The notes: generated by a model not told the origin, from the letters alone. A stretch of 64,000 nt of DNA from an uncultured Planctomycetota bacterium (GCA_963823665.1 CAWGMQ010000005.1:64001-128000); one strand, 5' to 3'. Positions 17,555 to 45,635 are shown, counted from the stretch's first letter. Numbers and translations are program-made.

Positions 17555-17644
17555 CTCGGGGCGGTCGGAAATCGTCAGAGCACATGGGAGCCGTCGGTTC
17601 TTGGTGGACTCGTGGCGGACGGTGTCATTGCGAGTCGTCCCTTA

Positions 17645-19526
17645 TCACTCGTCTTCGGCTTCCTCGGCTTTAGCCGGTTGCCGCCGTAGGGAAAGATCCC
17701 ACAACTGCGCACCCGCGTCGTCATCCAGGCCGCGCATCCAGGTTCTGGGGGCGTACGCGCCGTGCTCGTCCATTCCGTTGGGCCCGAGCGAGTAGACGAA
17801 GAGCTGCCCGTCGCGGTGTTCCATCCGGAACGACGCGCCCGTGAATGGGTCAGCGGGCGCGCCCGGCAGGATGGTGCGATCGATCGCGGCGACTGACTCT
17901 GGCCATTTGCCCGTCTTCTTGCGGTGTCGCTCGGCGGCCACGAGGATGGCATTGGCAGCCAGATCCGTCTGATAGCGCGAGAACGCCGTGCTCGCGGTGG
18001 CGACTGCCGGCGCGAGCATCAAGGGGAGCATTTCTGTGTAAGCGACGATCGGGCTGCGCTTCCTCCGCTCGGCCTCGGCCTCCCAGGCGCGCCAGAGCGC
18101 GGAGCGCTCGTCGATGGGCCGGCGCGATGGCAACGGCCTCGGTCATTCGTTCCAGCGCAACGGCCTGCTGCTGATCGAACCAGAGCTTTCCCCATGGCGC
18201 GACCGCGCCTGGCGGGCCGGCGCGATCAGACGCCGCGCCGTCGCTGAGCGCGGAGATCGGGATTTCCCCGGTTCCGAGCCGCCGGATGATCTCGGTCAAC
18301 ACGGCTCGTTCGCCCTTCACGCCGATGATCAAAAGCGGCTGCTTCATCTCGTCGAGCAGGAGCTCCTGGAGCGAGGCCAGAGCGGCGTCAGACGCTTCGC
18401 CCTGGCCGAGCACGCGCCACGTCGCGTCGAGCGCCGATTCGCCGATGGCGATGTGCACGAGATGCGAGATCAGGAAGGGCTCGTCACCGATCGATCGACC
18501 GGCTGCGAAGATGGCGCGGCAGGAGTCGAGAGCGCCCGAGAGGTCGCCGTCACGCGCCCGGATCACGGCACTGGCATACAGTAGACGCGCCAATCCTCGG
18601 GTGCCCTGGACGTGGGGCAAGAGCGTGTCAATCACCGCCGGCGCGATGATCAGCTCGTGGCGGCCGCGGGGGTATTTCACGAGCGACCGGGCCAATTCGA
18701 CCGCTTTGTCATGTTTTTTCAGCTCGGTGCGCAGCGATTTTTCCAGTGATTCGCTCATCCTGAGATTCGTCGGGGTGTCATGAATTGAGTCGAACTGCTT
18801 GACGAATTCCGCGCGGGTGGGGTCTGGTACTCCGAGATTCGCCGTGGGGCGCTCGGGCCAGCCGTCGGGGATCAGAGCGAGTATCTCGTCGATCACCGGT
18901 GCGGAGTTGAGTGAATCGGACACTGCCCGGCGGTGAGCGAGCAGGTCAGCGAGGCGCCAGTTCGGGTCATCCTGATCGGCGGCGGCGATTGCCGCTGCCA
19001 GCCTCCGATCGACCAGGCGCCCGACGTACGCGCCGATGATACCTGCGGCGACGAGAATCAGCAGCAGCGGGATGCCGACGAGCCAGGGCCAAAGCCTGCG
19101 CCGGTGCCTTTTCTTGGGATAGCCGGCTGGCTTGTCAGCGGTGCGCGCAGGCGAAACCTCGTCGTCCGCGGACAAACTGATTGCACCCGCCGCGACCGGA
19201 CGCCGCCTCGTGATCTGTGCCGCGAGGAGCGCGACCGAGCCGCCGATCAAGGCCCCAAAAGCGGTGAATAACAGGAGGACGCCAATACCAGCCGGCACGT
19301 AGCTGGAAAACGCGAGGCCGCGGCCCGAGCCCAGGCCAAACGCGGTGACTGCGAGCGCCGGGACAATCAAGAGCGACGCCAGGAGCCCTGAGACCACGCC
19401 GGCGATGCGCATTCCGCTCTTCGCCCCGCGCCAGATGGAAGCGCGCGGCCCCGTGGGTGGAACTTCGCGCTGCTCGGCGCCCGAGGGGGTTTTCGGTGGG
19501 ACCGGCTCGTATGGGTTCTCTGTCAT
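17645..19526 (-). CDS. Same family, paralogue B; frameshift near 18125
   Basis: DDPNWRLADLLAHR, GALDSCRA, GDEPFLIS; C-terminal AAERHRKKTGKWP..DPFTG..VYSLGPNGMDEHG in ORF 17645..18133. Confidence 0.7.
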
Positions 19527-19568
19527 TTTTTCGATGCCTGGATGAACGTTGTCATTCGCGGCTGCAGG

Positions 19569-21091
19569 TCACTGCGGGTTAACGGGAGTCTGCGACGGCT
19601 TGGCTTCTGCCGGCTTTGCGTATGGTCGCCCGCGGAGCCTCACATCCCACGCTCGCGCGCCGACGTCGTCGGGGCCGCCTTTGATCCAAAGTTTCGGGTC
19701 GTACTTGCCGTGCTCGTCCTGGCCGTTGAGTCCGATCGAATAAATCACGATCTGTCCGTCGTGGTATTCCATGCGAAACGGTTTTCCCGTGAACGGGTCT
19801 ACCGGTGGGCTGGGCAAGATATTCGAGTCGATTTCCTTGATTGTTGCGGGCCATTTGCCGGTCTTGCGTCGGTGGCGCTCGGCGGCGATCAAGATTGCTG
19901 TCGCGGCGAGCTCAGCTTGAGACCGGCAGAAGGCAGTGCTGGCGGCACGTGTTGCTGGAGTTAACATTAGTGGAAGCATCGCCGTGAGTTTTCCGATGCG
20001 GCTCTGCCTGAGCGCGACGATCTTCGCTTCCCACGCCGCCCAGAGGCGCGCTGCTCGAAGGCCGGGCGCCGCGAAATTGCAACCGCCTCGGTGAGCCAGT
20101 CGAGCGCGATGGTGCGCTGGCCGGTGAAGATGAATCCGACAAAACGCAGAGCCGACCGGCCGGCAGTGTCCGCGCCGGTCGACGGCTTGGGCGAACCGCC
20201 TTCGATTGCCGAGAGTGGAACCTCCCCCTCCTCCAGGCGACGAATCAGCTCAGTCACCATGGCTCGCTCGCCCCTCATTCCATTGAACAACAGAGGCTGT
20301 GCGTGCTCATCGAGAATCAAGGCTTGGAGTCGGGCGAGCGCGGCCTCCGAAGGCTCGCCCTGGCCGAGCACTCGCGACGTGGATCGCATTGCGACGCCAT
20401 CAATCGCAATCCGGACGAGCGAGGAAATGAGGGTCGGCTCGTCACCGATCGAACGGGCCGTGCCGATCAAGGCGCGGCATGAATCGAGTGCGCCGTCGGC
20501 GTCACCATTCTGGGCGCGGATTGCTGTGTCGGCATCGAGCAGGCGTGCGAGACCCCGCGTGGACTGCGTTTCAGCCAGAAGGGTGTCGATCACCGCGGGT
20601 CCGATCAGGATTTCGTGGCGCCCGCGGCGGAAGTTGGCGACGGTGCGTGCCAGCGCCAGCGCCGCTGCTTGATTCTTGAGCTCGCTTGCGAGCGCTTCGG
20701 CGTCCTGCTCGTCCAGTCGCACATTTGCGCTGGTCGTCGCGAGCCGTTCATAGGCATCGGCGGCGGCGCGTGCGGCATCACTCGGCGCACCGGTACCGCG
20801 CCCGCGGGGATTCAGCCAATCCTTGGGGAGCAGCGCGACGGCTTTTGCCACGACCAGTGCCGAGTTTTCCGCGTCCGGCACTTGCTCGCGATGGGCCAGC
20901 AGATCGTCGAGCCGCCAGTACGGGTCGTCACGATCAGCCGCTGCGACTGCGGTCGCCAAGCTCTTATTTCCCGTCGACCTCATGTAGATCACTGTCAGAG
21001 CGACAGTGACCAGCAGGAGCAATAATGGGACACCGATCAGCCAGAGCCAGAGGCTGCGGCGCTTTGCTTTTGGGGAATCGTCGTCAGCCAT
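19569..21091 (-). CDS. Same family, paralogue C; frameshift near 20050
   Basis: Single TM; DDPYWRLDDLLAHR, GALDSCRA, GDEPTLIS; C-terminal AAERHRRKTGKWP..DPFTG..IYSIGLNGQDEHG; AAGGAG RBS upstream. Confidence 0.7.
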
Positions 21092-27427: not shown

Positions 27428-27687
27428 GTCCCGAAGAGACCTTGGCTGTCTTGCCAGGTGCTTCGGTCGGACCGACCGAAGCGCGCGACACCGATCAAGT
27501 TGTTCAAACTCCTCTCGCAGGGTTGTGCGGCTGAGAAAGTCCCGACGCCACGCGCGATTGCTGCGATTTGCCCGTCTCGGCGCTCATAGACCTGACTACC
27601 GGTCGCGGCATGGGTATAATCGCTGCCGGCGGCGGGTGGCGGTCTACGTAGGGCTGCTTTCGTTGCGCCACGATCTCGGAGGCGATC

Positions 27688-28089
27688 ATGAAGGCGATTC
27701 TCTCAATGGCGTTGGTCCTCGGGGTATACGGCCTGGCGGGCGCGGCGGACGACAAGGCGGTCGATCCGGTCGGGACGTGGAAGTGCGAGTATGAGATCGG
27801 CGGACAGCAGCGGACGTCCACCTTGACGATCAAGAAGGACGGGGACAAACACTCCGGGACGATGAGCTGGACGGACCAGAAGGATGAGCCACTCAGGGAC
27901 GTGAAGCTGAAGGAGGGGACGCTGACGTTTTCAGCCGTGCGGAAGTTGGCGGGGATGGATGACGGCATCACCGTCGAATACAAGCTGACGGTTGACGGGG
28001 ATAAGCTCAAGGGGAAGGGCTCGTCGGACCGCGGAGGCGAGAAGCGGGAATGGGATATCGAGGGCAAGAGGCAGAAGGACGATAAGTAG
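27688..28089 (+). CDS. Small secreted beta-rich protein
   Basis: GGAGG RBS; signal peptide MKAILSMALVLGVYGLAGA; DPVGTWKC..LTIKKDGDK..LTF..LKGKG. Confidence 0.75.
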   Translation: MKAILSMALVLGVYGLAGAADDKAVDPVGTWKCEYEIGGQQRTSTLTIKKDGDKHSGTMSWTDQKDEPLRDVKLKEGTLTFSAVRKLAGMDDGITVEYKLTVDGDKLKGKGSSDRGGEKREWDIEGKRQKDDK

Positions 28090-28236
28090 TCGTCGCGCAG
28101 TACAGAAGCACGGTGAGAAAGTGGGCTTCCGCGAGCGTCTTCCAGGGAGGGGGATCGGTGATGAGAAAGTAAATGTACAGGATGAATACGGCCACGGTGC
28201 TGGGCAGGACCACCCGCCGTTCGGTGGAATAATCAC

Positions 28237-29259
28237 ATGAGCGGATATCCATCTCGTGATTTCACTTTTTTCTGTTGCGGTTCGTGCGTGGCGTGTGCCT
28301 TGGGGTTTGGGCTATGGTTGTATTCCACGGGATGGCCTTACCCGGTACTTCTGCCGAACACACCAGTTCTGCCGAGCACATCGACGCAAGGCGCTGCGCT
28401 CGGCATACGCAAGACGACGCGATCGCCGACCGTGGCGACGCAAGACGACGCGATCTTCGATCTGAACACCTACCTGCTTCATCGCAACGCGTTCTACCAG
28501 GGTCTGCCCGCGCAGGACGTTCAGAACAAGCGATTGGAGGACCAGGCGAAGTTACTGGAGGCCTACGAGAAAGACCCGGAGAAGTTTCTCAAGCGCTACA
28601 CCGTGAGCGAATGGGTTTTCCTTTTTGATGCCGTCATCGAAGCCAGGAACATGGTTCGCGTCGGGGCGTTTGCTGACGGCGGGAAATGGGTGAGCGATCC
28701 CCAGTCCCTGAAAGCCGGGGCTCTGGTTTACTCGTTCGGCGCCGGGACAGAGATCTCATTCGATACCGAGTCGGCGGGGCTTTACGGCTGCGAAGTTCAT
28801 TGCTTCGACCCCACACCTTCCGTGGAGCGTTCTTTTGCCAAGTACTGCCCCGGCCAACCGGTCGGCAAGGGGAAATTCTGGTATCATGCTGTGGGTCTGG
28901 GACCGGTTTCCCTCGACCCCAAAAAAGCCGATGACCTGGTCCTCGAAGACCGGAAATGTCCGGTCAAACTCCTCAGCGAGCTTGCTGCCGAATTGGGCCA
29001 TGCGCATATAGATATTCTGAAAATTGATATCGAAGGGGGAGAGACGGCGGCTTTGACGGAAATCCTCTCTTCCGGGACACTCAAAAGACTGGCGGTCAAA
29101 CAGCTCTTGGTGGAATTCCATTTGTGGGACGATGAACACTGGAGTTCTTTCGTCCACATCATCAGCCTGCTCCGCAAGCAGGGCTACCTGATTTTCCGCA
29201 AAGAGTTCAATCCTGTGGACGGGCGATGTGCCGAGTTCTCTTTTCTGGGCCCGGATTGA
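28237..29259 (+). CDS. FkbM / Methyltransf_22-like SAM-dependent methyltransferase with N-terminal TM
   Basis: DGGKWV, VYSFGAGTEISFD, CEVHCFDPT, GHAHIDILKIDIEGGE, QLLVEFH. Confidence 0.8.
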   Translation: MSGYPSRDFTFFCCGSCVACALGFGLWLYSTGWPYPVLLPNTPVLPSTSTQGAALGIRKTTRSPTVATQDDAIFDLNTYLLHRNAFYQGLPAQDVQNKRLEDQAKLLEAYEKDPEKFLKRYTVSEWVFLFDAVIEARNMVRVGAFADGGKWVSDPQSLKAGALVYSFGAGTEISFDTESAGLYGCEVHCFDPTPSVERSFAKYCPGQPVGKGKFWYHAVGLGPVSLDPKKADDLVLEDRKCPVKLLSELAAELGHAHIDILKIDIEGGETAALTEILSSGTLKRLAVKQLLVEFHLWDDEHWSSFVHIISLLRKQGYLIFRKEFNPVDGRCAEFSFLGPD

Positions 29260-29686
29260 ATATCGTCCTATGACTCTATAGTTTGTCAGCCGCCGCACCG
29301 GCCTCGGGTCCCTGCAAGCGGTCCTTCGCAAGTTTTACCGGAGCGGTGAACAGATATAATAGCCATATCGTATACATAGATGTAGTGAACGAGGTAAGCG
29401 TGATGCCAGCCAGAGGAGCGCAGTCATGCTAATAACCGTGACCCACCTTTGCTACTTCGCGACAGTCGTCACCATCGGAATCCTGCTTGGCGTCGTGTTC
29501 GGGCAGGCGAAACCCGATCAGGCGTGAAGTGAAACTGGCTACCGCCGGCCGCGGCCTCTTGCATGAGGGGCTTGCGGCTGGTCTTGTTTCTGCCGATGCT
29601 GCATCGATGCTCAAAGCTATCGCCGACCACCTGGCTGCTGCTCTACATTCACGATCAAGCCACCCCGCCGCTCTGACGTCGCCACA

Positions 29687-31006
29687 TCAACGACTTGCAA
29701 GCGGCGCACCCAGCACGAGAAACGCCTCGCTCACCGGGCTGGGCACGATCGCCCGGGCCATCTCTCCGATCGGAGCGCGTTTGAGCCGATCGGGAACGAT
29801 CGCGTCCGGCTCGAAGAAGACGCTGCTCGGGTTTCCGCCAAAATCTCCAAGCCTGCCGTCGTGCTGGACGAAGTAATTGTGGTTATTATCGGCCTGCGTG
29901 ACGAGCCCCCCCGGGGAAATGAAAACCGATTGGCTCGGTACCGAATTGACCATCTCGCCGGAATTGATCCACATGAGGCCTGTGCGTATGAGGTCTGTGC
30001 GTAGCTGCGCCCGCCTGCGCCGATGCGGGGCGGCGGCGGCCGGACTGATGGTCTGATTCCGCGGGACCGTGACGGTCACTCCCTCGCCCGTCACGACAGC
30101 CAGGAGCTGCGGGCCCGTCGTGGTCTCGCGCTCCGGAATTTCCACGCGGAGCTCGCGGTCGGAAACCACACGGAAACCGGCAGCTCGCGAGCCGCCGGCT
30201 TGGCCCAGGAACAGTACTGCATTCGTGCGGGCAAACCCCTTGCCGGTAAGCGTGATGATCTCGCCGGATCCGCCCGCGCGCGGCGAGAACCCTCGAATGA
30301 GCGGTGGAACTGCCCGCGCTTCCGACAGGTCCGGTAGTAGCGGAGCCACATACCGGAATGGTCCGACCCCCGGGCACGCCGTGATCTCGGGAACCCTGAC
30401 GAGCGTGACCGCGGCCCGCTGGTTCGGCCTTGCAACACCAGGGCCGAGCTGCGCGGCCGGCTCGTAAAAGACGATGCCGCCGGGATTGCGGAATTCCAGC
30501 AGCGTTCCGCCGCTCTTCACGAAATGCATGGCCGCGTTCGTGCTGTGCACCACGACGCCCCCTTTCTCGATCAGGGCGACGCTCTCGGCGCTCGACACGA
30601 CACCACCGCTCTGCACGTGATAAAACGTTTCGCCGGCCTCGGCGACGTTGGCCCCTTGTACCGACGACCGGACGGTCTGCACGGTCGCGGGCATCGCCAC
30701 CGCCGCGCCACTCTCGGTGAAGACGGCGAGGGTCGCAGCCGCGCCCGGTCGATAGCACTCCGGCACGACCACTTCGATCTCCTCGTCGGAGATAACCTTG
30801 AAGCGGGCGCGCCTCAGCGTGCGGTCGATCGCGAAAACAACACGCCCCGTGGTGGCCAGCCCCTTGCCCTTCAACTGCACCGGAATACCAGCCGGTCCCG
30901 ATTCGGGCGTCATCGAGAAAATCTCCGGTCCCGCCGACGCGACCGGCGGAAGAACCATGCCGATCACCACAACGAGCGTCCAGGGCAACCGTTGTCGTAT
31001 GCACAT
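29687..31006 (-). CDS. Secreted protein with two IPT/TIG domains
   Basis: Signal peptide; PEIFSMTPESGPAG..LKGKGL..FKVISDEEIEVVVP and PLIRGFSPRAGGSG..LTGKGF..FRVVSDRELRVEIP; AGGAGG RBS. Confidence 0.75.
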   Translation of the reverse strand: MCIRQRLPWTLVVVIGMVLPPVASAGPEIFSMTPESGPAGIPVQLKGKGLATTGRVVFAIDRTLRRARFKVISDEEIEVVVPECYRPGAAATLAVFTESGAAVAMPATVQTVRSSVQGANVAEAGETFYHVQSGGVVSSAESVALIEKGGVVVHSTNAAMHFVKSGGTLLEFRNPGGIVFYEPAAQLGPGVARPNQRAAVTLVRVPEITACPGVGPFRYVAPLLPDLSEARAVPPLIRGFSPRAGGSGEIITLTGKGFARTNAVLFLGQAGGSRAAGFRVVSDRELRVEIPERETTTGPQLLAVVTGEGVTVTVPRNQTISPAAAAPHRRRRAQLRTDLIRTGLMWINSGEMVNSVPSQSVFISPGGLVTQADNNHNYFVQHDGRLGDFGGNPSSVFFEPDAIVPDRLKRAPIGEMARAIVPSPVSEAFLVLGAPLASR

Positions 31007-31028
31007 CGGTTAAGCCTCCTCGCCTCCG

Positions 31029-32606
31029 TCAGCGGCCGTTGTGCGCCAGCCGCCCCGAACCCGATCGTCGGCTCGACTCGGACAAAAGCTTGCGCACCTG
31101 GTTGCTCAAACCGGCGTCGATCGGCTCGACCGCGGCCAGCAGCGTGCGCAACTGCGGGCCCGATCGGTCGTGCTCCTTCGCTTCCTGGACGATCCCCTGA
31201 GCCAGTGCGTAGGCCAGATCAGCCGGCTTGTCCCAGGTTGTAACGGTGGCCAACTGGCGGGCATTGCTTCGGGTAATGACAAAGAGCGGCGCCCCCTGAT
31301 CGGGCGCGGCATATGGCGAGACGCCTAGCCGCCGCGAAAGCGCCGGCAGCTCGTTGATCGGCAGCGCGATCACTACATAGGAGCTTGCCAGAGCGTCGAG
31401 CGGCTCTGACCGGACGAGGCCGCGGCCGGCTACGGTGCGCTCCCACTCACGCAGAACATCCGAAGTTTCCGCGACCTTGTGCAAGATCAACAAGATCGGC
31501 AGCTTCGCGCGGTTCGCGGCGGCAAATGCCCGCTCGGCGGCATCGAGCTCGGTCTCGGGCCCGCTCAAGGGCTGACCGAGGATGTCTGCGAACACTCGGT
31601 GATAAACGTCCTTCAGCATCGGCAGCGGCTCTTCGGCCAGCAGCCTGTGAATCTGCACGAGCGTCGAACGACTCCCGCGCTGTTCCAGGCTCTCGCAGGC
31701 TTCACGATGGCCAACGGCAACCTGGACGGCGTTGCCCCGGGCTTCGCGATCGAGCTGCACCGCCCAGCGCGCCTCCGCCAGCAGTTCGTCCGCGGTCGCC
31801 GGGCCGGTCAATCCGTGAATGACCCGCCCGTCCGGGGTGCAGAAATAGCTCGCCACGTTCCCGCCGTTCTTTTGCAGATTGCCAAACTGATTGACGACCT
31901 CAAAACTGCCAACCTGCTGGTGTGCCGAAACGAAGTGCGCGGCGAAATATCGTGCCACGTTGGGGTCTGACAGGGCGCCCGCCCTGTATGCACTCGCGTT
32001 GTTTCACGTGAATCCGGGATCTTCGAAGTTACCCGATACGTGAATCAAGAAAACGAGCTTTCCTTCGCGACTGGCTTCGCCGGCGGCCTCCGCGGGTGAT
32101 TTGGCCCAGGTGAGCGCGGTGTCGAGCGAACGGTTGGCGGAGCAAACTTTCGCGGCGCCATTGCACGATTCTGGTTCCGCAAGCGTGAGGTCGGCCAGCG
32201 CAAACCACGGCTTCTCCGGGAGCACGAATGGTGCAGCCGTTGCAACCGCGCCTGGCGAAAGAGCAAACTGATCGACCGGCGGCGACTTCTCAAAGCGAGG
32301 TCCAGCGATCTGTTCCTTTTCGACCTGGGTCTCTGAACCCGGCAGACGGCCGGCTTTCGCGATCGGCACCGCCGCGTGCTCAGGCGGTGTGCCCACGTCC
32401 TCAGCCGGTGCGGTTTTCGAGGCGACCGGTTGCCCGCTGTCTGCCAGCGCGCGCTTCGGACCATGCGTGCACCAGGTGTACGCCGCCAGGATGAGAGCGA
32501 TTGACGCACAAAACCCCACGCCCGCGGCATAACCCACGAGCATTCCACGAAGCCAGCCCTGTGACAGTCTCGGCCCCATCGCCGGCAAGTTCCCACGAAC
32601 ACTCAT
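31029..32606 (-). CDS. Thioredoxin-fold membrane-anchored protein, candidate selenoprotein (in-frame TGA at 32004-32006)
   Basis: ORFs 32004..32606 and 31029..31958 share a frame; read-through gives GKLVFLIHVSGNFEDPGFT-U-NNASAYRAGALSDPNVARYFAAHFV..FCTPDGRVIH. Confidence 0.7.
31970..31987 (-). promoter_or_regulatory. Candidate bacterial SECIS hairpin
   Basis: mRNA ACAGGGC-GGGC-GCCCUGU: perfect 7-bp stem with a G-starting loop, beginning 16 nt after the UGA. Confidence 0.6.
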
Positions 32607-32687
32607 GGCGCGCCCCCCAATGAGAGTCGGAACAAGGCTTCCGTCCTTGGTTACGAACCTCCCGCGCGAGGTGTTCGCGGCTAATTT

Positions 32688-33849
32688 TCAGATCGTCGCG
32701 CTGGCACCGGCCTGCACTGCCGCTTTCACTTTCTCGATGAACGCCGGCCAGCGTGGGTCCGATTCCAAGCTCATGAGCTCGATGTGGCTGTGCCGAACGG
32801 GCAACCACGCCAGGAAGAACTCACGCTCGACGAGCGCCTGTTCCAGCGCGGCGAAGGCCAGGTCATTTTCTCCCAGGGCGGCATGAAGATGAGACAGGAA
32901 ATACGGACGTGTGGGGGCGGGGATCGTGCGCTCGGCCAGCTCGCGTTGAATCTGCCGCGCTTGGCCTACATCCCCGGAGAGCGCCAGCGCCTGACCCAGT
33001 GTGGATAAGAACATGGGCAACCGTCCGGAAAGCTCAACGGCCCGGTGCAATTCCCCGAACGCAGCCTCGCGATCTCCCAGGAACCAGCATGCCCGGCCAA
33101 GCTGCTGGTGACTGACGGCAAAATTCGGGTCGAGTTCCAGAGAGCGGCGCAGCGGCGGGAGCGCCTCGGCGAACGATTTCAGGGAGTTAAACGACATGCC
33201 GAGGTATGCGTGGGCTGCTTTGGAGAGCGGGTCGCCTTCCACGGCACGTCGATTCTGGGCAATGGATTCCTGGTCACGTCCCCTATGGATCAGAAGCCAC
33301 CCATACCAGTAGCGGGCCGGAGTGTAGTTCGAATTCAATTCCAGGGCCTTCAGCAAGTGCCGTTCGGACCCGTACCAGTCCCAGTCGCACCAGCCAAGCA
33401 CGACGCCGAGTGAACAGTGGGCCTCGGCGGAATTGTCGTCCAAAGCTGATGTCATATACCCGGCAAACGTTGGGATGAGCGAGCTGCCGGGACAAGCGCA
33501 CGTCACTCACAAATAACTGAAAGCGCCTCGAACTCTCGGCGACGCCGCGCGGCAGAAATTTGAGCGCCACCGGATGACCGAGCTTCAAGTCATCGGCGCG
33601 ATAGACCTCTCCCATGCCGCCCCGGCCGGCGAGGGACACGATGCGATAGCGGCCGGCGATTTTGGTTCCCGACAGGAACCGGCCATGAGCCGACGAATCC
33701 GGGTCGGAAATCGATGGGGAAGCGCTTGGGTCGGTCGGAGGGTCGTGATCGATCGTTGCCTCCGGCTCCGGCACGAGCAGGCCGCCGCAGGCCGAGCAGA
33801 ACTTGCTGTCAGCGTTGTTTTCGGCGGAGCAGGCGGGGCAGGTTTTCAT
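32688..33849 (-). pseudogene. Ser/Thr kinase-TPR gene remnant with large internal deletion
   Basis: Zn-ribbon CPAC..CSAC and GRGGMGEVYRA..VALKFL..HPNVCRVYDI, joined out of frame near 33447 to TPR repeats (AEAHCSLG..ALELNSNY..LELDPNF). Confidence 0.7.
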
Positions 33850-34026
33850 GGGTCATCCGGCCCCCGTCGCGGTGCCGAATCTCCATAGCCGTTTGGCAAT
33901 CATCGCAACGATTCTGAGAATGGAGCGATTTTAGCAATGCGGTTTCGAAATGCCACCAGCGAGTCGCGTTCGAACGACGAAAAGACGGGCCGCGCAAGTG
34001 GTTTACGGCAAAGGCGACAAAGGTGG

Positions 34027-35485: not shown

Positions 35486-35704
35486 CGCGGCTCATGGTCG
35501 ACCGCCCGACCCTATGCGGTATCATCCTTGCCTGTCAAGCATACGGGCCCTCGGGGCGGGAAAAGGTGTCAGGAACCGAAAATGGCTTTCCCGTCACGCG
35601 TCACTTGATGGATGCCAGCCCGCGAATACCCGGTACGCTCGCACAATCCGTGCATCAGGATCGCCGGCATGATCACGCGGCACGACGAGCATCCGCCCCA
35701 CCAC

Positions 35705-36511
35705 TCAGCGGCTGATCTTCAGGCTCGGCAACGCCCGCTGTAGTTCATTCACTCCGGCGTCGGTGACCTGCGTCGACATGAGATCGAGATCCGACAGTTT
35801 GGTCAGCCCGTGCAGGTGCGCCAGCCCGGCGTCGGTGACGTGAGTGCGAGTGAGGTTAAGTTCCGAGAGATCGGTCAGTCCCTTAAGCTGCTCCAGCCCG
35901 GCATCGGTGATTTGTGTACCACCAAGGCTGAGTGAGGTAAGGTGCTTCAGCGCCGTCAAATGCGCAAGTCCGGCGTCCGTGACCCGATTGCCGTCAAGGA
36001 AAAGAGCCGTGAGGTTTGTGAGGCCCTTCAGATACAACAGCCCAGCATCTCTGACCCGAGTGTCTCGGACGCAAAGGACCGAGAGGTTTGTCAGTCCCGT
36101 AAGCTGCGATAGCCCGGTGTCGCTCAGGGTAGAAGGGATGACAATACAATCCCAGGACGATTGATCGTGAAACAGAGCCTGTAGCCGGGTGAGACGTCCG
36201 ACCTGTGCGATCGCTGCATCGTCGGCTTCGCTTGGGGTGAGAAAGACAAACGTGACGTGATCGAAATAGTCGACCCCGATCAGATCGATGAGCCACCGTG
36301 GCCCCCAGGGTTTTCCCCCCGAAATCGACGCTCCGTTGTTCCACTCCCAGTCATAACCGACGTTGCCGCCGACTTTCTGGATCGCCGCCACCGCCTCACG
36401 CTGAATCCGAGCGTTGCGAACGAGCCAGCCAAGCCAAACACCGATCACAAGCACCAGAACGATCAGCCCCCGCACGCTGAAGCGCAGGAATCTTCGCCAG
36501 GGCCGCCGGAT
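35705..36511 (-). CDS. Leucine-rich repeat protein; natural start apparently replaced by the repeat element
   Basis: RRPWRRFLRFSVRGLIVLVLVIG, then about six L..T.VTDAGL..L..LT.L repeats, ending ELQRALPSLKISR. Confidence 0.8.
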   Translation of the reverse strand: MRRPWRRFLRFSVRGLIVLVLVIGVWLGWLVRNARIQREAVAAIQKVGGNVGYDWEWNNGASISGGKPWGPRWLIDLIGVDYFDHVTFVFLTPSEADDAAIAQVGRLTRLQALFHDQSSWDCIVIPSTLSDTGLSQLTGLTNLSVLCVRDTRVRDAGLLYLKGLTNLTALFLDGNRVTDAGLAHLTALKHLTSLSLGGTQITDAGLEQLKGLTDLSELNLTRTHVTDAGLAHLHGLTKLSDLDLMSTQVTDAGVNELQRALPSLKISR

Positions 36512-36690
36512 GGGAAGCAAGACACCCACCCTTTCGTCGTGAATCAAAGATGAAACCGTTCGGGGAAAGGCGCAGCCGGACACCCATTCTCTCCGAGTGA
36601 TCCATCCACGGCTGCCTCAAACTCGCCAAAACGCTGGGTGTCTTGAAACCTGGTGTCTTGAATCCCAAAACGCTGGGTGTCTTGAATCCC
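36512..36690 (+). repeat. ~140-bp TIR-bounded repeat, copy 1 (right end triplicated)
   Basis: GGGAAGCAAGACACCC..GGACACCC..CAAAACGCTGGGTGTCTTGAA followed by two further GGTGTCTTGAATCCC units. Confidence 0.9.
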
Positions 36691-37345
36691 TGCGCCGTCC
36701 AGCCGATCCGCTCGTCCTTCAACCGATGGACCCGGCCACGGGTCGCGAGGGGCTGCTCCCGCGCCGACTGTTCGAGCTCGCTGTCGGACAGCCCATCGAT
36801 CAGGCCAACTCCGAACAGTGGCGGAGTATTGCGTGCCGTCAACCGGAACCCCACGCGATTGCTCCCCAAGCCGTTCTCCACGTCCCGCTCGGTGGCCATG
36901 GTCTCCCTGTTCAGCTCCTCCATGGTCGGGTTCGGAAAACACTTGCTGGGCCTGTCCTCATATCGAATTCGGGGGCCGACAGTCGTGTGTCGGCGACCGG
37001 AGTGGCTGGTCGAGTCCATCGAGACGATTTTAGCCCTGATCGAGGCTGCCGAGACGCGAGCACTCGTGCGGCATCGAGAACGACCTGCCCCGCGGTTGTC
37101 AGACCGATCAGGCCCGCCAGCGCCCACCGCCAGGCGCGGGACGGTCGCACCGCCGGCGCCCGGACTCGCATCGGCGGCACACCGCGAGAAATCGCGCCCG
37201 TCACAGTCATACCTGAAGCCTTCATCGGGGAAGGAGTCCGCGTCCGACCGGTTCGTTGGCCTCTATTGAGGCATTCGTCCCCGGTCGCGGTTTTGTTCGA
37301 GGGACCTCCGGTGAAATGGGACTCAGGTCGGATCGACCGAATCAA
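36691..37345 (-). pseudogene. Fragment of a di-heme oxidoreductase-like gene
   Basis: RNTPPLFGVGLIDG..RGRVHRLKDERIGWTAQ ends exactly at the repeat; upstream frames are disrupted. Confidence 0.55.
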
Positions 37346-37415
37346 CTCCAGATCAATCGACTTCGGTATCGTCGGACCGAAGCGGACAGTCTCCGCTGCT
37401 ATCGGAACCCCAGCG

Positions 37416-38168
37416 TTACTTTTTTGCCTTGGCCTTCTCCCGCGCGGCGGCCTCGGCGAGGACCGACTCGGGGTCGTCGTTGAACGTGTCGCGGCAGCCG
37501 GTGCAGCAGACCCAGTAGGTCTTGCCCTTGTAGTTGACCTTGATCGTGCCGCGGCCCTCGGTAACGACGCAGAGCGGGTACGACTCGCCCGTGGCGAAGG
37601 CGACTCCCTCGCGGGTGTAGCCGACCTCGCCGAGCCGGGAGAAGGTGTGGAGCTCGGGGTCCTCGGCCTCCAGCAGGACGAGCAGGCGGGTGTCGTGCAG
37701 CGGGGTGATCGAGACCCGGCGCACTCCGCCGGCCGGGGCCTTGGCGTCGGCCGTCAGGACCAGCGGCTTCTTTTCCTCCGCCGCACCGGCGAAGGTGCGG
37801 GACGTGCCGTCGGCGAGGGTCGCCTTGAGGACGAACGTGCCGGGCGCCTTGCCCGCCCGAAGTACGCCCGACTTGAGGTACTTGCCCTTCTTGACCGTTA
37901 TCTCCAGTCCGGCCGAGTCGCTGGTGAGCTTCCAGGCCCAGACCGCCGACTCCATCCACGCCCCGCGCACCCGTCCCCGCTGGACCTGCCCGACCCCGCG
38001 CCACGAGCCCACGAGCGGGGCGTACGCCTTCAGCGCCTCCTGGTCGGCGCGCCGGGCCGGCGCGACCTTGTCCTTGTCGTCGACAGCCCGCACCGTGACC
38101 GCGGCCGCCGCCACGACCCCCAGCGCCGCCAACAGGCCGACGCCCGACGAAACCCTGGCCCTTCGCAT
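37416..38168 (-). CDS. Secreted YHS-domain protein
   Basis: Signal peptide; C-terminal CVVTEGRGTIKVNYKGKTYWVCCTGCRDTFNDDPE. Confidence 0.8.
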   Translation of the reverse strand: MRRARVSSGVGLLAALGVVAAAAVTVRAVDDKDKVAPARRADQEALKAYAPLVGSWRGVGQVQRGRVRGAWMESAVWAWKLTSDSAGLEITVKKGKYLKSGVLRAGKAPGTFVLKATLADGTSRTFAGAAEEKKPLVLTADAKAPAGGVRRVSITPLHDTRLLVLLEAEDPELHTFSRLGEVGYTREGVAFATGESYPLCVVTEGRGTIKVNYKGKTYWVCCTGCRDTFNDDPESVLAEAAAREKAKAKK

Positions 38169-38267
38169 CGTGGACTCGCCCCCCTGAAGACTGACCCTCC
38201 CGTCGCCGACCCCGACCCCGACCATTGTAGGATGAAACCCCGCCCGGAAGCCATACTCTGTTTCGAT

Positions 38268-38414
38268 GGGAAGCAAGAAGCAAGACACCCACCCTTTCGT
38301 CGGGAATCAAAGATGAAACCGCGCGGGGAAAGGCGCAGCCGGACACCCATGCTCTCCGAGTGATCCATCCATGGCTGCCTCAAACTCGCCAAAACGCTGG
38401 GTGTCTTGGATCCC
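38268..38414 (+). repeat. ~140-bp TIR-bounded repeat, copy 2
   Basis: GGGAAGCAAGAAGCAAGACACCC..GGGTGTCTTGGATCCC. Confidence 0.9.
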
Positions 38415-38512
38415 TCTTTGATCAATCATCGTCAACAATCAAGAAGTTTGAGACAATGGGTGCTTGGCCTCCGATCAAAGGAAGATGGAGGCGGTGCCGC
38501 CAAGAGGTCGCG

Positions 38513-38956
38513 ATGAAAGTACCCCACTTCCGAATCGCCTCGATCATGGTGGTCGTCGCCATCGTCGCACTCAACCTCGTGGCGATTCGGGCTTTGCTTG
38601 GATTCCGTTCTCTAATGGGTGAATTGTTGATACTGAGTGCCCTGCCGATGGCGAACCTCTTGGCAGTCGGCCTGCTGATTGGTAGACGGCGTCCTGGGAA
38701 CCGTCCATTCCTCCTGGGCTTCGCGCCGTTCGGTGCGATGGCGCTCGCCCTTTACGTCGCCGTGACGACGTCTGTTCCTCGTGAGATTGTGGTATCCTGG
38801 CTGGCGCCGGTGAGCGACTACTTGGTGAGAATGATCGGGGCACATCGACCGTTGCTCTTCATCCGAGCCCTGACCTTCGCCTGTCTGCTCATACTGGTCT
38901 TGCCTCAAGTGATCTTCGCTCTGATCGGTGGCTTCCTATCCCGGAGATTCAAGTGA
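38513..38956 (+). CDS. Small four-TM membrane protein
   Basis: GAGG RBS; MKVPHFRIASIMVVVAIVALNL..FLLGF..LPQVIFALIGG; resembles 60521..61051. Confidence 0.7.
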   Translation: MKVPHFRIASIMVVVAIVALNLVAIRALLGFRSLMGELLILSALPMANLLAVGLLIGRRRPGNRPFLLGFAPFGAMALALYVAVTTSVPREIVVSWLAPVSDYLVRMIGAHRPLLFIRALTFACLLILVLPQVIFALIGGFLSRRFK

Positions 38957-38982
38957 GGAGGCAGACACTCGTCAGTCGCATG

Positions 38983-39122
38983 GGGAAGCAAGACATCCAC
39001 CCTTTCGTCGGGAATCAAAGATGAAACCGTGGGAGGAAAGGCGCAGCGGGACACCCATTCTCGTCGAGTGATCCGTCCATGGCTGCGTCAAACTCGCCAA
39101 AACGCTGCGTGTCTTGAATCCC
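38983..39122 (+). repeat. ~140-bp TIR-bounded repeat, copy 3
   Basis: GGGAAGCAAGACATCC..GCGTGTCTTGAATCCC; most diverged copy. Confidence 0.88.
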
Positions 39123-39337
39123 CATCCCAATGGACAAGGACGTTTCATAGGGTACGCTATTTGTCTATGCCTTCCGATGGCCGCTCCCTCGGTCCGATTC
39201 CTGAGAACAGGCATCCAACGACGACTGACTGGAGGGCGTCGCCGCAAGAAGAACGCGCGAAGTCCGAGATCTGAGGGGAAGATGGTGGATTCAAATACTC
39301 CGGCGCCGGCCGCGAGTATGGCAGGTACGGGATCGAC

Positions 39338-40388
39338 ATGCGAAGACTCAAGGTCGACCTTCAAGACGTGGCGATCGCCTTTGAAGACCACGGTTCCGAG
39401 TTGAGCCACTACCTCGACATGCAGACCGGCCGGGTCGTTTCCGTCGGCGCAAACGACTTCTCGGAGATCGATGAAGACGACGATGTACTCCGGGAAGATG
39501 AGCTCCGAGAAGATGACTACGAAGGGCCCGAACTGCCTAGCGAGCCTGACTGGATTCGAGCCGAACATGCACTTCGCGCGGAAGTCTGCAATGGGCTGGG
39601 CACGCGGTACATTGAAATCCCCGCCGACGACCGTCGCGAAGCCTACCGCGACATGGAAGAGTTTGTTGACACCGTGCAGGACAGTCGCCTCCAGGCTTGG
39701 CTGGCACGCGACATCGTGGGCCGCGGCGCATTTCGCCGGTTCCAAGATAGGCTTTCCGGGGACTTTCACGAGCGACGCCGTTGGTTTGAATTCAAGAATG
39801 CGCGGCTGGAAGCGCGAATACGCGATTGGTTGGCGTCCGAGGAGATCGAGCCAATCGAAGATCCCCGCGATCAGGAGCGGGAAGAACAGCGGAAGGCCCA
39901 GGAGTTGGTCGATATTCGACTCGACCTGGTCGCCGCGGTCTTGGATTTCGTTGGTTCCGTGGCGCGGACTCCCGGGGGTGCTGCGGATCGCGCTCATCGG
40001 GTCCTTGACAACCGATCGGCTAGACCCGAAGGATGCCGACCTTCTCGTCACTGTGGCAGATGACGCCGGCCTTGGCGCGCTCGCCAAGTCTGCCCGTCGC
40101 ATGCAGGGTCGTGCGCAGAGTTCCAACCGCGGAGCCGATGTTTTTCTACTGGATCCGCGCGGACGCTATATCGGGCGCACGTGTCAGTGGAAAGACTGTG
40201 GTCCCGGAATTCGTCAGAGCTGCGACGCCCTCCATTGCGGCCAACGGCACTACCTTCACGATGACCTGGCCGCGGTCACTCTCCCGAGAGAGATCACAGA
40301 TTCCCCAGCCATCGAGCTATGGCCCGGGCTGGTCACCCGCGTGCCGGTTCCACAAGACCTCAAGGCGGGGCTAATCGACAAGTTGTGA
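39338..40388 (+). CDS. UPF0158 domain fused to (or adjacent to) a nucleotidyltransferase-like domain; frameshift near 39975
   Basis: YLDMQTGRV, YRDMEEFV, GRGAFRRFQD, WFEFK; then PGVLRIALIGSL..PKDADLLV and C..W..C..C..HC..HYLHDD. Confidence 0.7.
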
Positions 40389-40439
40389 TCGTCGTCCTCT
40401 CTCTTTTGTCGCTAGCTGATTCGAAAGGTCGTTTCATCC

Positions 40440-40736
40440 ATGAACCAGTCACCTGAACTCACGCCGGCCGAGCAAGTTCATGCTGGCCTTTACCGAGACC
40501 CGTCGCAGCTTTTCAAACGGGCGCTAGGTCGCAAGCTTTCCTTCATCATCCCGTCGCTCGTGCTCATGATTGTCTGGCTTTTCACGCGTGAGCTCCCCTA
40601 CGTCATTCTCGGTTATGGGATCTTGCTTTACGAAGAGGTGCTTGGAATCTTCTTGGCCAAGAGAGGCATTCAGACCACCAATCAAGTCCTCACGAGATAT
40701 CAGCAAAAGGTCCCAAATCAAGCAGACGCTCCCTGA
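40440..40736 (+). CDS. Small two-TM hypothetical protein
   Basis: 98-aa ORF with FIIPSLVLMIVWLF and YVILGYGILLY; ends 33 nt before repeat copy 4. Confidence 0.55.
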   Translation: MNQSPELTPAEQVHAGLYRDPSQLFKRALGRKLSFIIPSLVLMIVWLFTRELPYVILGYGILLYEEVLGIFLAKRGIQTTNQVLTRYQQKVPNQADAP

Positions 40737-40769
40737 CAGGGCGATCCCGATTTCTGCATCTACAACGAG

Positions 40770-40939
40770 GGGAAGCAGGAAGCAAGACACCCATCCGTTC
40801 GTCGGGAATAAAAGATGAAACCGTCCGGGAAAAGCGCATCCGGACACTCATTCTCTCCGAGTGATCCATCCATGGCTGCCTCAAACTCGCCAAAACGCTG
40901 GGTGTCTTGAATCCCAAAACTCTGGGTGTCTTGAAACCC
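40770..40939 (+). repeat. ~140-bp TIR-bounded repeat, copy 4 (both ends partly duplicated)
   Basis: GGGAAGCAGGAAGCAAGACACCC..GGGTGTCTTGAATCCC-AAAACTCT-GGGTGTCTTGAAACCC. Confidence 0.9.
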
Positions 40940-40991: not shown

Positions 40992-41576
40992 CTAAGCCAG
41001 TGATAGCTTGAACAACTCTTGCGCCACTGCGTGACGCCCTAGAACAACATGCGTCGCACGCTCGCCCGCGACGTGCTCCGTACAGGTGTATCCGAGCTTG
41101 ACGAGATCAATTTCGCCAAGGAAGCGTTCGCCCGAGCCGAGGAGCACCGGGCATATCGCCAGATTCAGCTCATCGATCAGTCCGGCGCGAAGATACTGCT
41201 GATCGGTGGCGACGCCGCCTCCGATACAAACGTCTTTCCCATTCGCGGCCGCTGTGGCTCTCTCGAGGGCGCGGTGGATTCCATCCGTCATGAAATGGAA
41301 CGTCGTTCCTCCCTGCATCGGGATCGATTCGCGCGGGTAGTGGGTCAGCACGAACACGGGGCTGCGAAACGGCGGCGTCTCTCCCCACCCGCCCTTCCAG
41401 GAGTTGTCAGGCCACGGCCCTCGAACGGGTCCGAGCATGTTTCTGCCGAAGATGTAGGCGCCCACGTTCAGGAACCTCCGAGCGAAGAAGTCATCGTCGA
41501 TCCCGGTCGTTCCTGCGTCCTTGCCGTGAATGGGCTGGAACGTCCACTCCTTGCGTACTTGGTTGAGGTATGGCAA
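40992..41576 (-). pseudogene. Dihydrofolate reductase / RibD C-terminal family protein, probably 5'-truncated
   Basis: GAYIFGRNM, WGETPPF..PVFVLTH, GKDVCIGGG, AGLIDEL, PVLLGSGER; the usual N-terminal S.DG motif is not seen. Confidence 0.65.
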
Positions 41577-42063: not shown

Positions 42064-42142
42064 TGAGATTAACATTAAGATTCGGATCAGGATTAAGATT
42101 ATGATCAAAATTAACGGTAAAACTACGATCAGGATTGGGATC
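42064..42142 (+). repeat. Degenerate 6-bp-period AT-rich repeat tract
   Basis: GAGATTAACATTAAGATTCGGATCAGGATTAAGATTATGATCAAAATTAAC..ACGATCAGGATTGGGATC. Confidence 0.6.
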
Positions 42143-42515
42143 TGGAGGAAGATCAGGGCGCGGCCGGTTTACACTAGTGTACGGATGCTGGAAGGCCCCC
42201 GTAATATTGCCACTTTTTGCCATTTTTTCGATGGGATCGACGATTGCTTCGGGTGCAGTGGCTGCTCTGCAAGTTCAATGGGCATAATCGAATGGGAACA
42301 GAGCGAAGGCGTTCTTCGGCAATGGCAAAACCACTTGGCACGTGCCACGAAAAATTGCCAAAACAAATCGATGGTCTTGTTCACTATGTTTTTAACCCGT
42401 TTTTTCACGGCACTCGAGAGGGCATTCGCGCCGGCTGGGGCGCGCGGTCTTCCCTGGGCGCAAGCCCCCTCCGCCCTCTGCGGTGGCACCTTCCCCACGA
42501 GGGCGGATGAATCCC

Positions 42516-42538
42516 TTCGCAGAGCGAAGGGCGACAAT
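42516..42538 (+). repeat. REP-like short repeat, copy 2
   Basis: TTCGCAGAGCGAAGGGCGACAAT, near-identical to 15240..15262. Confidence 0.55.
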
Positions 42539-42937
42539 GGGGTGGTTCGTGAGAGCCGCTTCAGCACGATCAATTTGGAACTGAATTCCGATTTTTCCTG
42601 CGTCACACTCAACTCGTTCTGGCATAACGGGTTCTGGCTTGTCCGAGCGCGCTCCAATTTCCTGCGTCACACCTAAGTCCAAGCCCTGCAAGGACGTGAC
42701 GCAGTGACGAAGGCCTGGCCCACTTGTGTGCGCGGGCGGCGGGTTTTCAATGGTCTGACGGGGAGGGATGAGGCGAGGGTTCGTTCCCTTAAAGTGGCCC
42801 GTTGGCGCGCCCGAAGTCGGATTGTCGCTTCCGTCCAATCATGGTACACATCCAGCGCTCGAGCACCGGTGCCCACGCGAGAGCCCGGTGACGCATGGAG
42901 GCTCTCGGGTAATCCCCTCCGCGATATCCCCTCCCAC

Positions 42938-45190: not shown

Positions 45191-45248
45191 ATCAGGCCTG
45201 GTTCAAACGTAGCGAGAGTAGGGTCACACCCGCGATGTTTCACCGCAC

Positions 45249-45311
45249 GTAGGGTGGGTGCAACCCACCACCCCATATCGTATTACGACCGGTGGGTTGC
45301 ACCCAGCCAAC
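45249..45311. repeat. GTAG-type REP pair (REPIN-like)
   Basis: GTAGGGTGGGTGCAACCCACC, 21-nt spacer, then the inverted copy GGTGGGTTGCACCCAGCCAAC. Confidence 0.7.
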
Positions 45312-45635
45312 GTACTGGCGCCCATCAACGGTGTTACCTTAGCGTCGCTTCCGTTGAACCACGCCCCGGCGACCCCTTGCTTTTGAGAGTCACGGAGGGA
45401 GAAAATTGTAAGAGTGCATTGTTCTGGCGCGGCAGGTTGGCGTCACATCGCCCGTTCTTCCCCGTATGAGTTAGGTGGTTGGAATCACGCCGCCTTGCAC
45501 GCAATCGTCTGCGCGACCGGGGATGCAGGACTTCAAAGAGGGCGGCGTGCGGGGCAAGCGGCACCGCGACAGGACGTTGAGAAGCTCGGCCGGGCTTTCG
45601 CGTAGATGGCTGATCGCGAACTCTGGATCTAAGGA

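Follow-up and report, generated by a model that had tools for sequence, protein, structure and literature searches.

Co-oriented miniature repeats in a planctomycete genome share an end motif with TnpA(Y1) transposase elements

A stretch of 64,000 nucleotides from an uncultured Planctomycetota bacterium (GCA_963823665.1, CAWGMQ010000005.1:64001-128000), here termed the window, contains four direct plus-strand copies of a 139-140 bp repeat, termed family A, which start at positions 36512, 38268, 38983 and 40770. A first-pass annotation of the window had noted these four co-oriented copies of about 140 bp. It proposed either recombination sites of an integron-like gene-capture system, or a non-autonomous element acting in trans with an HUH/Y1 transposase resembling the RAYTs, the tyrosine transposases associated with repetitive extragenic palindromic (REP) sequences. 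The positions and orientation of the copies are confirmed, and the second proposal has gained ground, as the same ends bound Y1 genes in the host genome and in its relatives. The reading favoured here, and considered reasonably probable from the sequence comparisons, is that the repeats are two-ended non-autonomous miniatures moved in trans by a TnpA(Y1) enzyme of subclass 2.3, that they insert near resident copies, and that their ends act singly. The host genome (G000) is 16.5 Mb in length in 12 contigs, has many frameshifts and is 92% complete; the names of its relatives place it in the Isosphaeraceae. Counts given for this genome are of matches listed by genome-wide searches and of those in about 1.5 Mb of its stretches, and do not form a full census.

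Copy 1 (36512..36690, plus strand) has a 140-bp body at 36512-36651 followed by tandem re-copies of its right terminus. A public short-read contig matches 36512-36650 exactly, in different surroundings. Copy 2 (38268..38414, plus) begins with a 7-nt re-copy of the left terminus, followed by a body at 38275-38414. In copy 3 (38983..39122, plus), each end motif has a single substitution, and the copy begins at a distance of 26 nt from the stop codon that precedes it. Copy 4 (40770..40939, plus) consists of a left re-copy of 7 nt, a body at 40777-40915 and a right re-copy of 24 nt, and a stop codon lies 33 nt before it; both stop codons are on the plus strand, as first reported. Relative to copy 2, copies 1, 3 and 4 are 96%, 91% and 92% identical. 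The repeat ends read GGGA-N4-AGACAC, and the outer 16-mers form an inverted match at 14/16 positions. The unit is closed by a terminal stem of 11 bp with GGGA at its foot. The earlier description of end motifs plus an internal third motif, GACACCC, holds apart from the single changes in copy 3 and one change in the third motif of copy 4. None of the four copies has a short hairpin with a GT[AG]G foot, as in REPs, bacterial interspersed mosaic elements (BIMEs) or REPINs (REP doublets forming hairpins), and none contains a group II intron. A search of the window against Rfam gave no match.

The genes around the copies are partly broken. A minus-strand leucine-rich-repeat (LRR) gene at 35705..36511, identified by Pfam LRR matches, lacks its start codon and the few codons that follow, in place of which stands the left end of copy 1; in all 16 of the paralogue rows listed, the native start is found just upstream of this junction. 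On the opposite side, the right end of copy 1 cuts a minus-strand gene remnant (36691..37226), whose homology to contig C6 of the relative G001 begins at 36689 and whose G001 counterpart extends beyond the junction. Each of the two sides has a CC or CCC overlap with its donor. The remnant, which has no Pfam or NCBIfam match, resembles di-haem oxidoreductases. A whole YHS-domain gene (37416..38168, minus; PF04945, E 1.3e-6, just under cut-off) is present with an upstream region that reaches the left end of copy 2. This module is 88-93% identical in G001, G008 and G033, each time in another context, and its homology to G033 and to a public contig ends at 38267, right before copy 2. A small membrane-protein gene (38513..38956, plus) occupies the interval from copy 2 to copy 3; it is an open reading frame without Pfam or NCBIfam match that belongs to a paralogous family and has relatives at 69-71% in other genomes. 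Copies 3 and 4 are separated by a UPF0158 gene with an overlapping second frame (39338..40388, plus), likely the result of a frameshift, and by a gene for a 98-aa membrane protein (40440..40736, plus; an open reading frame without family match), which precedes copy 4. The UPF0158 assignment is upheld for the first frame (PF03682, E 3.9e-8); that of a nucleotidyltransferase to the second is by eye, without a family match. A convergent gene with a RibD C-terminal domain (40992..41576, minus; PF01872, E 1.6e-10) ends about 50 nt past copy 4. The DNA between copies is unrelated, as had been stated, but it does not form a series of intact genes in one orientation: a cut LRR gene and a remnant flank copy 1, and the YHS gene runs in the other direction.

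The end motif can be written as GGGW-N4-AGACACCC, with the inverse GGGTGTCT-N4-WCCC, and has 106 exact matches in G000 versus four in the control. This number exceeds that of family A copies because other miniature families share the motif. The motif also bounds elements of about 1.8 kb that code for a Y1-like gene. Among 18 long inward-facing end pairs, 13 enclose a Y1 gene or its remains, two are split by an intron and three enclose other sequences. The left end of family A agrees at 22/25 positions with the end that lies downstream in Y1 elements of G000 and G001; in the background, 21/25 is not reached at any of 1.6 million positions. The right-end pattern of family A gave no matches in a metagenome collection and one locus in a species collection from which the genome itself and very near ones may be excluded.

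Stop-free full-length Y1 frames are found in three G000 copies. The copy nearest to the window (C5:132700-134256) lies 4.7 kb beyond the window end and about 28 kb from the array; it is frameshifted and has no upstream end. One internal deletion (585 to 1254), which removes the catalytic region, occurs with an identical junction at six G000 loci. A transposase-dead form has therefore multiplied, and mobilisation in trans by the Y1 enzyme is likely on this evidence.

The association of motif and enzyme extends to distant relatives. At 80 metagenomic loci of such Y1 genes, the strict octamer GACACCCA is found upstream in the sense orientation in 35/55 testable cases and never in antisense, and downstream it is inverted in 12/46 and never in sense. 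A relaxed motif is present upstream in 44/55, downstream in 26/46 and on both sides in 17/36 testable loci, with a background of 30/704, and as it was chosen after viewing these loci, the strict octamer taken from the window is the fair test. Four or more exact end motifs occur in 8 of 121 genomes of the family, and six of these encode a closely similar enzyme (E below 1e-100). G086 has a Y1 gene with degenerate ends. On these comparisons the motif-enzyme link extends beyond the host genome.

The partner protein has 409 aa, with an intact G000 gene at C8:1396555-1397781, and H76, H78 and Y189 are invariant in 48 sequences. The distance from HuH to Y is 111 aa; the median for TnpA(Y1) subclass 2.3 is given as 110 in the available text of the survey by Quentin et al. 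(2018; PMC6006769). The protein appears to be an HUH transposase of this subclass, a placement made by this spacing, by core insertions and by a long C-terminal tail rather than by a tree. A Y1 enzyme of this type is very probably the correct partner class. The protein matches NF047646 at E 3e-8, below cut-off, and many of its homologues carry the Joint Genome Institute (JGI) name RayT. It has no Pfam match, and sequence searches of the PDB gave nothing significant. In a fold search over 48,161 chains the top two were Y1 transposases (Z 6.1 and 5.9; root mean square deviation/aligned residues 2.9/87 and 4.1/92), and the top six Foldseek matches were also Y1 enzymes, but with E above 0.1. The 11 PF01797 (Y1_Tnp) genes of G000 were rejected as partners because their ends differ. 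Y1_Tnp, integron integrase and the partner-type protein were sought throughout the genome, and no match fell inside the window, in agreement with the earlier statement that no recombinase gene is present there.

Two side observations concern Y1 loci. A CRISPR-like array (repeats of about 36 bp with unique spacers) lies directly before a second, more distant, long Y1 gene, upstream of G000 C10:188936 (L058/L145), and this Y1 gene is without GACACCC ends. Y1 elements of the clade in G033 (L183), G117 (L185) and G061 (L193) have long tandem arrays of their own terminus, even where the motif differs, and the re-copying of ends seems general to the Y1 clade.

Family A has 21 matches in G000 among 40/44 candidates scored, of which 19 are independent; two on contig C9 were set aside as that contig duplicates the start of C3. 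In five of the 19, just the right half is present. A search of 60 other genomes gave three single copies in G001 and half copies in G008; a further 24-bp match is probably due to chance. Clustering is pronounced: 16/19 copies have a neighbour within 10 kb (0.41 expected from uniform placement), as the first-pass annotation had supposed, and adjacent pairs are co-oriented in 12/12 cases. A second family, B, has 42 matches listed; with 40/107 candidates scored, 25/40 are clustered and 17/18 pairs are co-oriented. Further miniature families of 150-190 bp are found in G000, G033 and G030. In family A and the 40 scored copies of family B, neighbour pairs at a distance of 15 kb or less are of the same family in 32/33 cases versus 18.3 by permutation. 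One island in G001 mixes the two families.

These distributions limit the causes of the arrays. Permissive islands alone are disfavoured, since they would mix families, yet 32/33 neighbour pairs among family A and the scored family B copies are of one family. Recent local copying is disfavoured, since it would make neighbours alike, yet family A distances within and between clusters are equal (0.103 and 0.106; p 0.38), and those of family B are nearly so (p 0.065). This leaves two candidates, namely a single master that gave rise to an old burst locally, and insertion directed by copies already resident. Family A lies mostly in regions of positive GC skew and family B is mixed, in skew values of 20-60-kb pieces that are noisy. 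An agreement of Y1 element orientation with GC skew in 15/15 cases was lost after masking the elements and adding flanks.

Where both flanks are traceable (window copy 1 and a copy on contig C6), the two sides derive from unrelated DNA and no clean insertion is seen. The C6 copy lies at the stop codon of a gene common to G030, and its other side abuts a 5'-broken gene common to G089. A copy on C4 abuts a 5'-broken gene common to G033, and a segment between two copies on C4 is 97% identical to another genus. Donor junctions (n=17) reveal no fixed target; ten have C at position -2 and seven at -1. Target-site duplication, reported as not visible in the window, has a score of zero in 17/18 complete elements, the same as in the shuffled control. 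A partial search of 3.1 Mb with blastn and tblastx failed to reveal an empty site for any of 77 elements and returned only two self-tandem artefacts.

A tandem self-copy follows the terminus at 82/288 ends, compared with 10/3000 control sites. In the window such re-copies are found at the right end of copies 1 and 4 and, at 7 nt, at the left end of copies 2 and 4. They are not only an artefact of long reads, since a short-read contig has one too. In one case, two repeat bodies that differ at 21/140 sites (Fisher p 3e-4) have in common a 141-bp flank (4 mismatches), which meets both of them at the same base; this is suggestive of left-end exchange. Units of an end plus its flank were found at two places in five cases among 259 ends. 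On contig C3 (L023:2177-3498), a whole gene with promoter, serine-hydrolase-like by eye, lies between two family A copies, and an internally deleted form of this unit is present on C4 (L026:10746-11020), before another family A copy. By a crude reading of open reading frames, about 7/16 complete copies lie within 120 nt after a co-oriented stop codon.

Group II introns have invaded the ends (G000 loci L029, L043, L131, L132, L135-L138, L144 and L342-L371). One group II intron (RF02005; maturase TIGR04416) is present in G000 in 20 copies at 99-100% identity. Insertion is directly after GGGTGTCT in 19/19 readable copies, and the 3' exons restore the motif. A loop at intron position 219 has a hexamer complementary to the motif and is probably exon-binding site 1 (EBS1). 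Many copies are forms of about 730 nt without an open reading frame, and some are twintrons. Related introns take the opposite motif strand or another Y1 end. Homing into the ends of mobile elements is a published strategy for RmInt2, as far as described in the available text of PMC4615759, where introns lie inside the terminal inverted repeats (TIRs) of ISRm17, at either end. The case here differs in that the ends are those of Y1 elements and miniatures, and at least three intron types use different ends or strands. In G008 (L037:8880-9200), two family A half copies border, at their internal third GACACCC, on sequence that resembles an intron (class IIC-like by eye); the genes beside it correspond to those in window 29663-32686 (91-93% identity).

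Other features of the window deserve mention. At 35559-35580 is a lone end of another TIR-flanked Y1 family, with the motif seen round the L049 Y1 gene; it sits 125 nt past the LRR gene and points at it. At 42068-42545, a low-complexity hexamer-like run is followed by a segment of about 385 bp, which is repeated over 20 times in G000, with 72-84% identity. After an ATP-binding cassette (ABC) transporter gene, at 45195-45365, lies an imperfect, REP-like palindrome with 75-nt arms, of which about 120 bp are multicopy in G000 and G001 (85-92%). Three paralogous segments about 1.9 kb apart and 67-78% alike occupy 16616-20938. Single-gene modules in 27465-33909 and 37365-38267 are 88-97% identical to sequences in other order or places in G001, G008 and G033, whereas the core ABC-transporter region is only 78-86% identical in these genomes. 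This pattern is one of heavy module shuffling, likely with transfer between genera.

Nicking of single-stranded ends and a tyrosine intermediate are the established chemistry of HUH enzymes, as in IS200/IS605 and TnpA(REP). By analogy, the Y1 enzyme, encoded by the 1.8-kb elements elsewhere in the genome, would nick an end at its terminal CCC, with the DNA in single-stranded form, and transfer the strand via a covalent tyrosine intermediate. The nicked end would be joined to a target of little sequence demand, often with CC microhomology. The preferred target may lie near a resident copy of the same family and on the same strand, as proposed for TnpA(REP); such same-strand targeting would give copies in direct orientation. 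As each end could act alone, genes nearby would be truncated, deleted or newly acquired, and tandem re-copies would result where an end is joined again to subterminal DNA of its own. Cargo arrays would be a by-product of these events, with repeat and flank occasionally moving together, and not an integron with a fixed attI site. The model brings together the shared ends and clade-wide motif, the clusters, co-orientation and absence of target duplication, and the re-copied termini and broken or unrelated flanks.

Several observations weigh against this model. A Y1 element with exact family A ends was not found (best 22/25 left, 20/25 right), so the cognate enzyme copy is assumed. The motif-rich genomes G030 (73% complete) and G087 (78%) are without a close Y1 among 15 candidates scored in each, and Y1 genes of G009, 50% identical, have other ends. 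The fold Z-scores are under 8 and the predicted model is weak (mean pLDDT, the predicted local distance difference test score, 55). The neighbour statistics cover only 40 scored of 107 family B candidates and omit further families that mix with B. The copies of family A form a star-like pattern, each with about 6% private change, and a single old burst with subsequent decay would fit this as well. When G000 is compared with relatives, most breakpoints of shared segments are not at ends in both genomes. Four public contig sets gave no repeat-to-repeat joint, as would arise from the circles that the first-pass annotation had suggested looking for, but the sets share only 0.10-0.17 of words with the stretch, and this negative carries no weight in either direction.

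A stronger version of the idea may be considered, tentatively. A subclass 2.3 Y1 enzyme might recognise GACACCCA, excise units of a repeat plus its neighbour and integrate them at resident repeats of the same family, so that genes would be shuffled by an HUH system with no tyrosine recombinase.

Clearly less likely than the favoured reading is an ordinary MITE, a miniature transposable element with inverted repeats: a Y1-dependent master hopped locally in an old burst, the co-orientation came from the lagging strand, and flanks eroded later, with no resident preference and no gene capture. Uniformly scattered MITE copies had been the alternative at the outset, and they are not what is found, as the clusters are family-specific and co-oriented, without duplications or empty sites. 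A classical MITE of an insertion sequence (IS) of the DDE type is likewise disfavoured, as 17/18 elements have no target duplication and the partial search gave no clean empty site. An old burst does not readily account for one flank on two diverged bodies, for the C4 inter-copy segment so similar to another genus, or for the lack of clean insertion at window copy 1 and at the C6 copy. Nor does orientation consistently agree with the (noisy) GC skew.

Slightly less likely again is a dedicated cassette system, in which circles of repeat plus cargo are excised and integrated at a same-family copy by the Y1 enzyme, in an IS26-like manner, and the host shuffles genes. The family-specific direct arrays with unrelated neighbours, the same flank on different repeat bodies, the whole C3 gene with promoter between two copies, and the five end-plus-flank units at two places would fit such a system, and IS26 forms arrays of this kind by targeting a resident copy, according to the available text of PMC4894685. 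Yet many flanks are broken genes, a co-oriented stop codon precedes fewer than half of the complete copies at close range, shared end-plus-flank units are rare, and the contig sets, a weak test, revealed no circle junction. No Y1 gene heads the window array, the nearest being the distant copy without an upstream end. Further points against a strict cassette system are the breakpoints away from ends and the finding that relatives lacking family A have the YHS gene and a C4 cargo. Syntenic cargo in relatives without repeats had been named beforehand as evidence against gene capture; the YHS gene is found without family A in three relatives, in three other contexts.

It is highly improbable that the repeats arose as retro-copies, or that they are a structured RNA which was spread by reverse transcription of the group II intron or diversity-generating retroelement (DGR) type. 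The right halves among the copies, the group II introns at repeat ends and an excess of A>G over T>C in family A (35 to 8) might suggest this, but the ends track a DNA transposase, the introns inside ends are later invaders, and there is no Rfam match in the window. Substitution rates in family A are similar at the four bases (A 0.073, C 0.068, G 0.043, T 0.061), and DGR-like adenine-specific mutation was rejected on this ground. On the displayed strand, family A also has C>T versus G>A at 28 to 15; neither bias is found in family B, and single-strand deamination would give both excesses.

Least probable of all are attC-like sites of an integron, or of a cluster of attC sites lacking an integrase (CALIN), served by a tyrosine recombinase: two copies start shortly after co-oriented stop codons and bottom strands fold better than shuffles in 3/4 window copies (z about -3), but GTTRRRY/RYYYAAC cores are absent from both strands of all four copies, as first noted, 0/18 tyrosine-recombinase matches in G000 pass the integron-integrase cut-off (TIGR02249), the ends belong to Y1 elements, none of 39 predicted pairs shows compensatory change or covariation, and whole co-oriented genes between sites are not the rule, given the broken genes at copy 1, the opposite-strand YHS gene and the C4 and C6 remnants. 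The integron-like half of the original proposal is therefore abandoned.

Several known systems resemble the repeats of the window in part. TIRtrons (TIRYTs), RAYT-like Y1 genes flanked by TIRs, are a known kind (Di Nocera et al. 2013, PMC3733652). In the available text of that paper, TIRs rather than REP hairpins surround the Y1 gene, and repeats also occur away from the gene as dimers or clusters, as here. The TIRtron motif given there is GGGGWSAS, in contrast to GGGW-N4-AGACACCC(A) here; a few distant Y1 relatives, e.g. L252, do fit GGGGWSAS, but the window ends do not. Gene-separating co-oriented arrays were not found in that text, and the 26 TIRtron examples in the portions available of PMC6006769 are of subclasses 2.1, 2.2 and 2.5, with none of 2.3.

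Subclass 2.3 was described as a widespread Y1 group with no DNA partner found by the 2018 survey, in the same portions of PMC6006769. Its members share with the partner protein a long sequence, a HuH-to-Y distance of about 110, core insertions and several diverged copies per genome. The survey's available text reports no REP-like flanks, unlike the inverted GACACCCA ends and several miniature families seen here; the end motif was not found in its text supplements, as far as these could be accessed, and the accessible part of PMC5581495 has nothing further on the clade.

TnpA(REP) of Escherichia coli, with REP/BIME, is also similar in being a trans-acting Y1 enzyme with non-coding repeats and local tandem amplification (Ton-Hoang et al., PMC3333891). 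Its cleavage takes place some way off from a resident repeat, and insertion close to such a repeat, with sequestration of flanking genes, has been proposed in the text available. The translocatable units of IS26 form direct copies split by unrelated DNA, built beside a resident copy, as presented in the accessible text of Harmer and Hall (2016; PMC4894685). The copies here are non-coding and about 10% apart, with an HUH partner, and targeted integration is only a candidate mechanism. As in IS200/IS605, there is no target duplication; the elements here differ in having inverted ends and, at the 17 donor junctions, no fixed target of 4-5 nt. IS26 itself is an autonomous DDE element with near-identical copies. 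As far as the literature searched shows, the subclass 2.3 end motif, the two-ended miniatures and the family-specific co-oriented arrays are new; the search, for which most subscription journals, figures and non-text supplements were outside the scope, returned no paper on this motif or on such arrays.

The inverted GACACCCA motif and the miniatures provide a concrete substrate for subclass 2.3, so that its chemistry is directly testable. If the gene-shuffling version were true, integron-like arrays would be built by an HUH enzyme in giant planctomycete genomes. If resident copies guide insertion and ends act singly, as favoured here, this would be an HUH counterpart of IS26-style array building, and it would offer a mechanism for the shuffling of modules in the 12-16 Mb genomes of soil planctomycetes.

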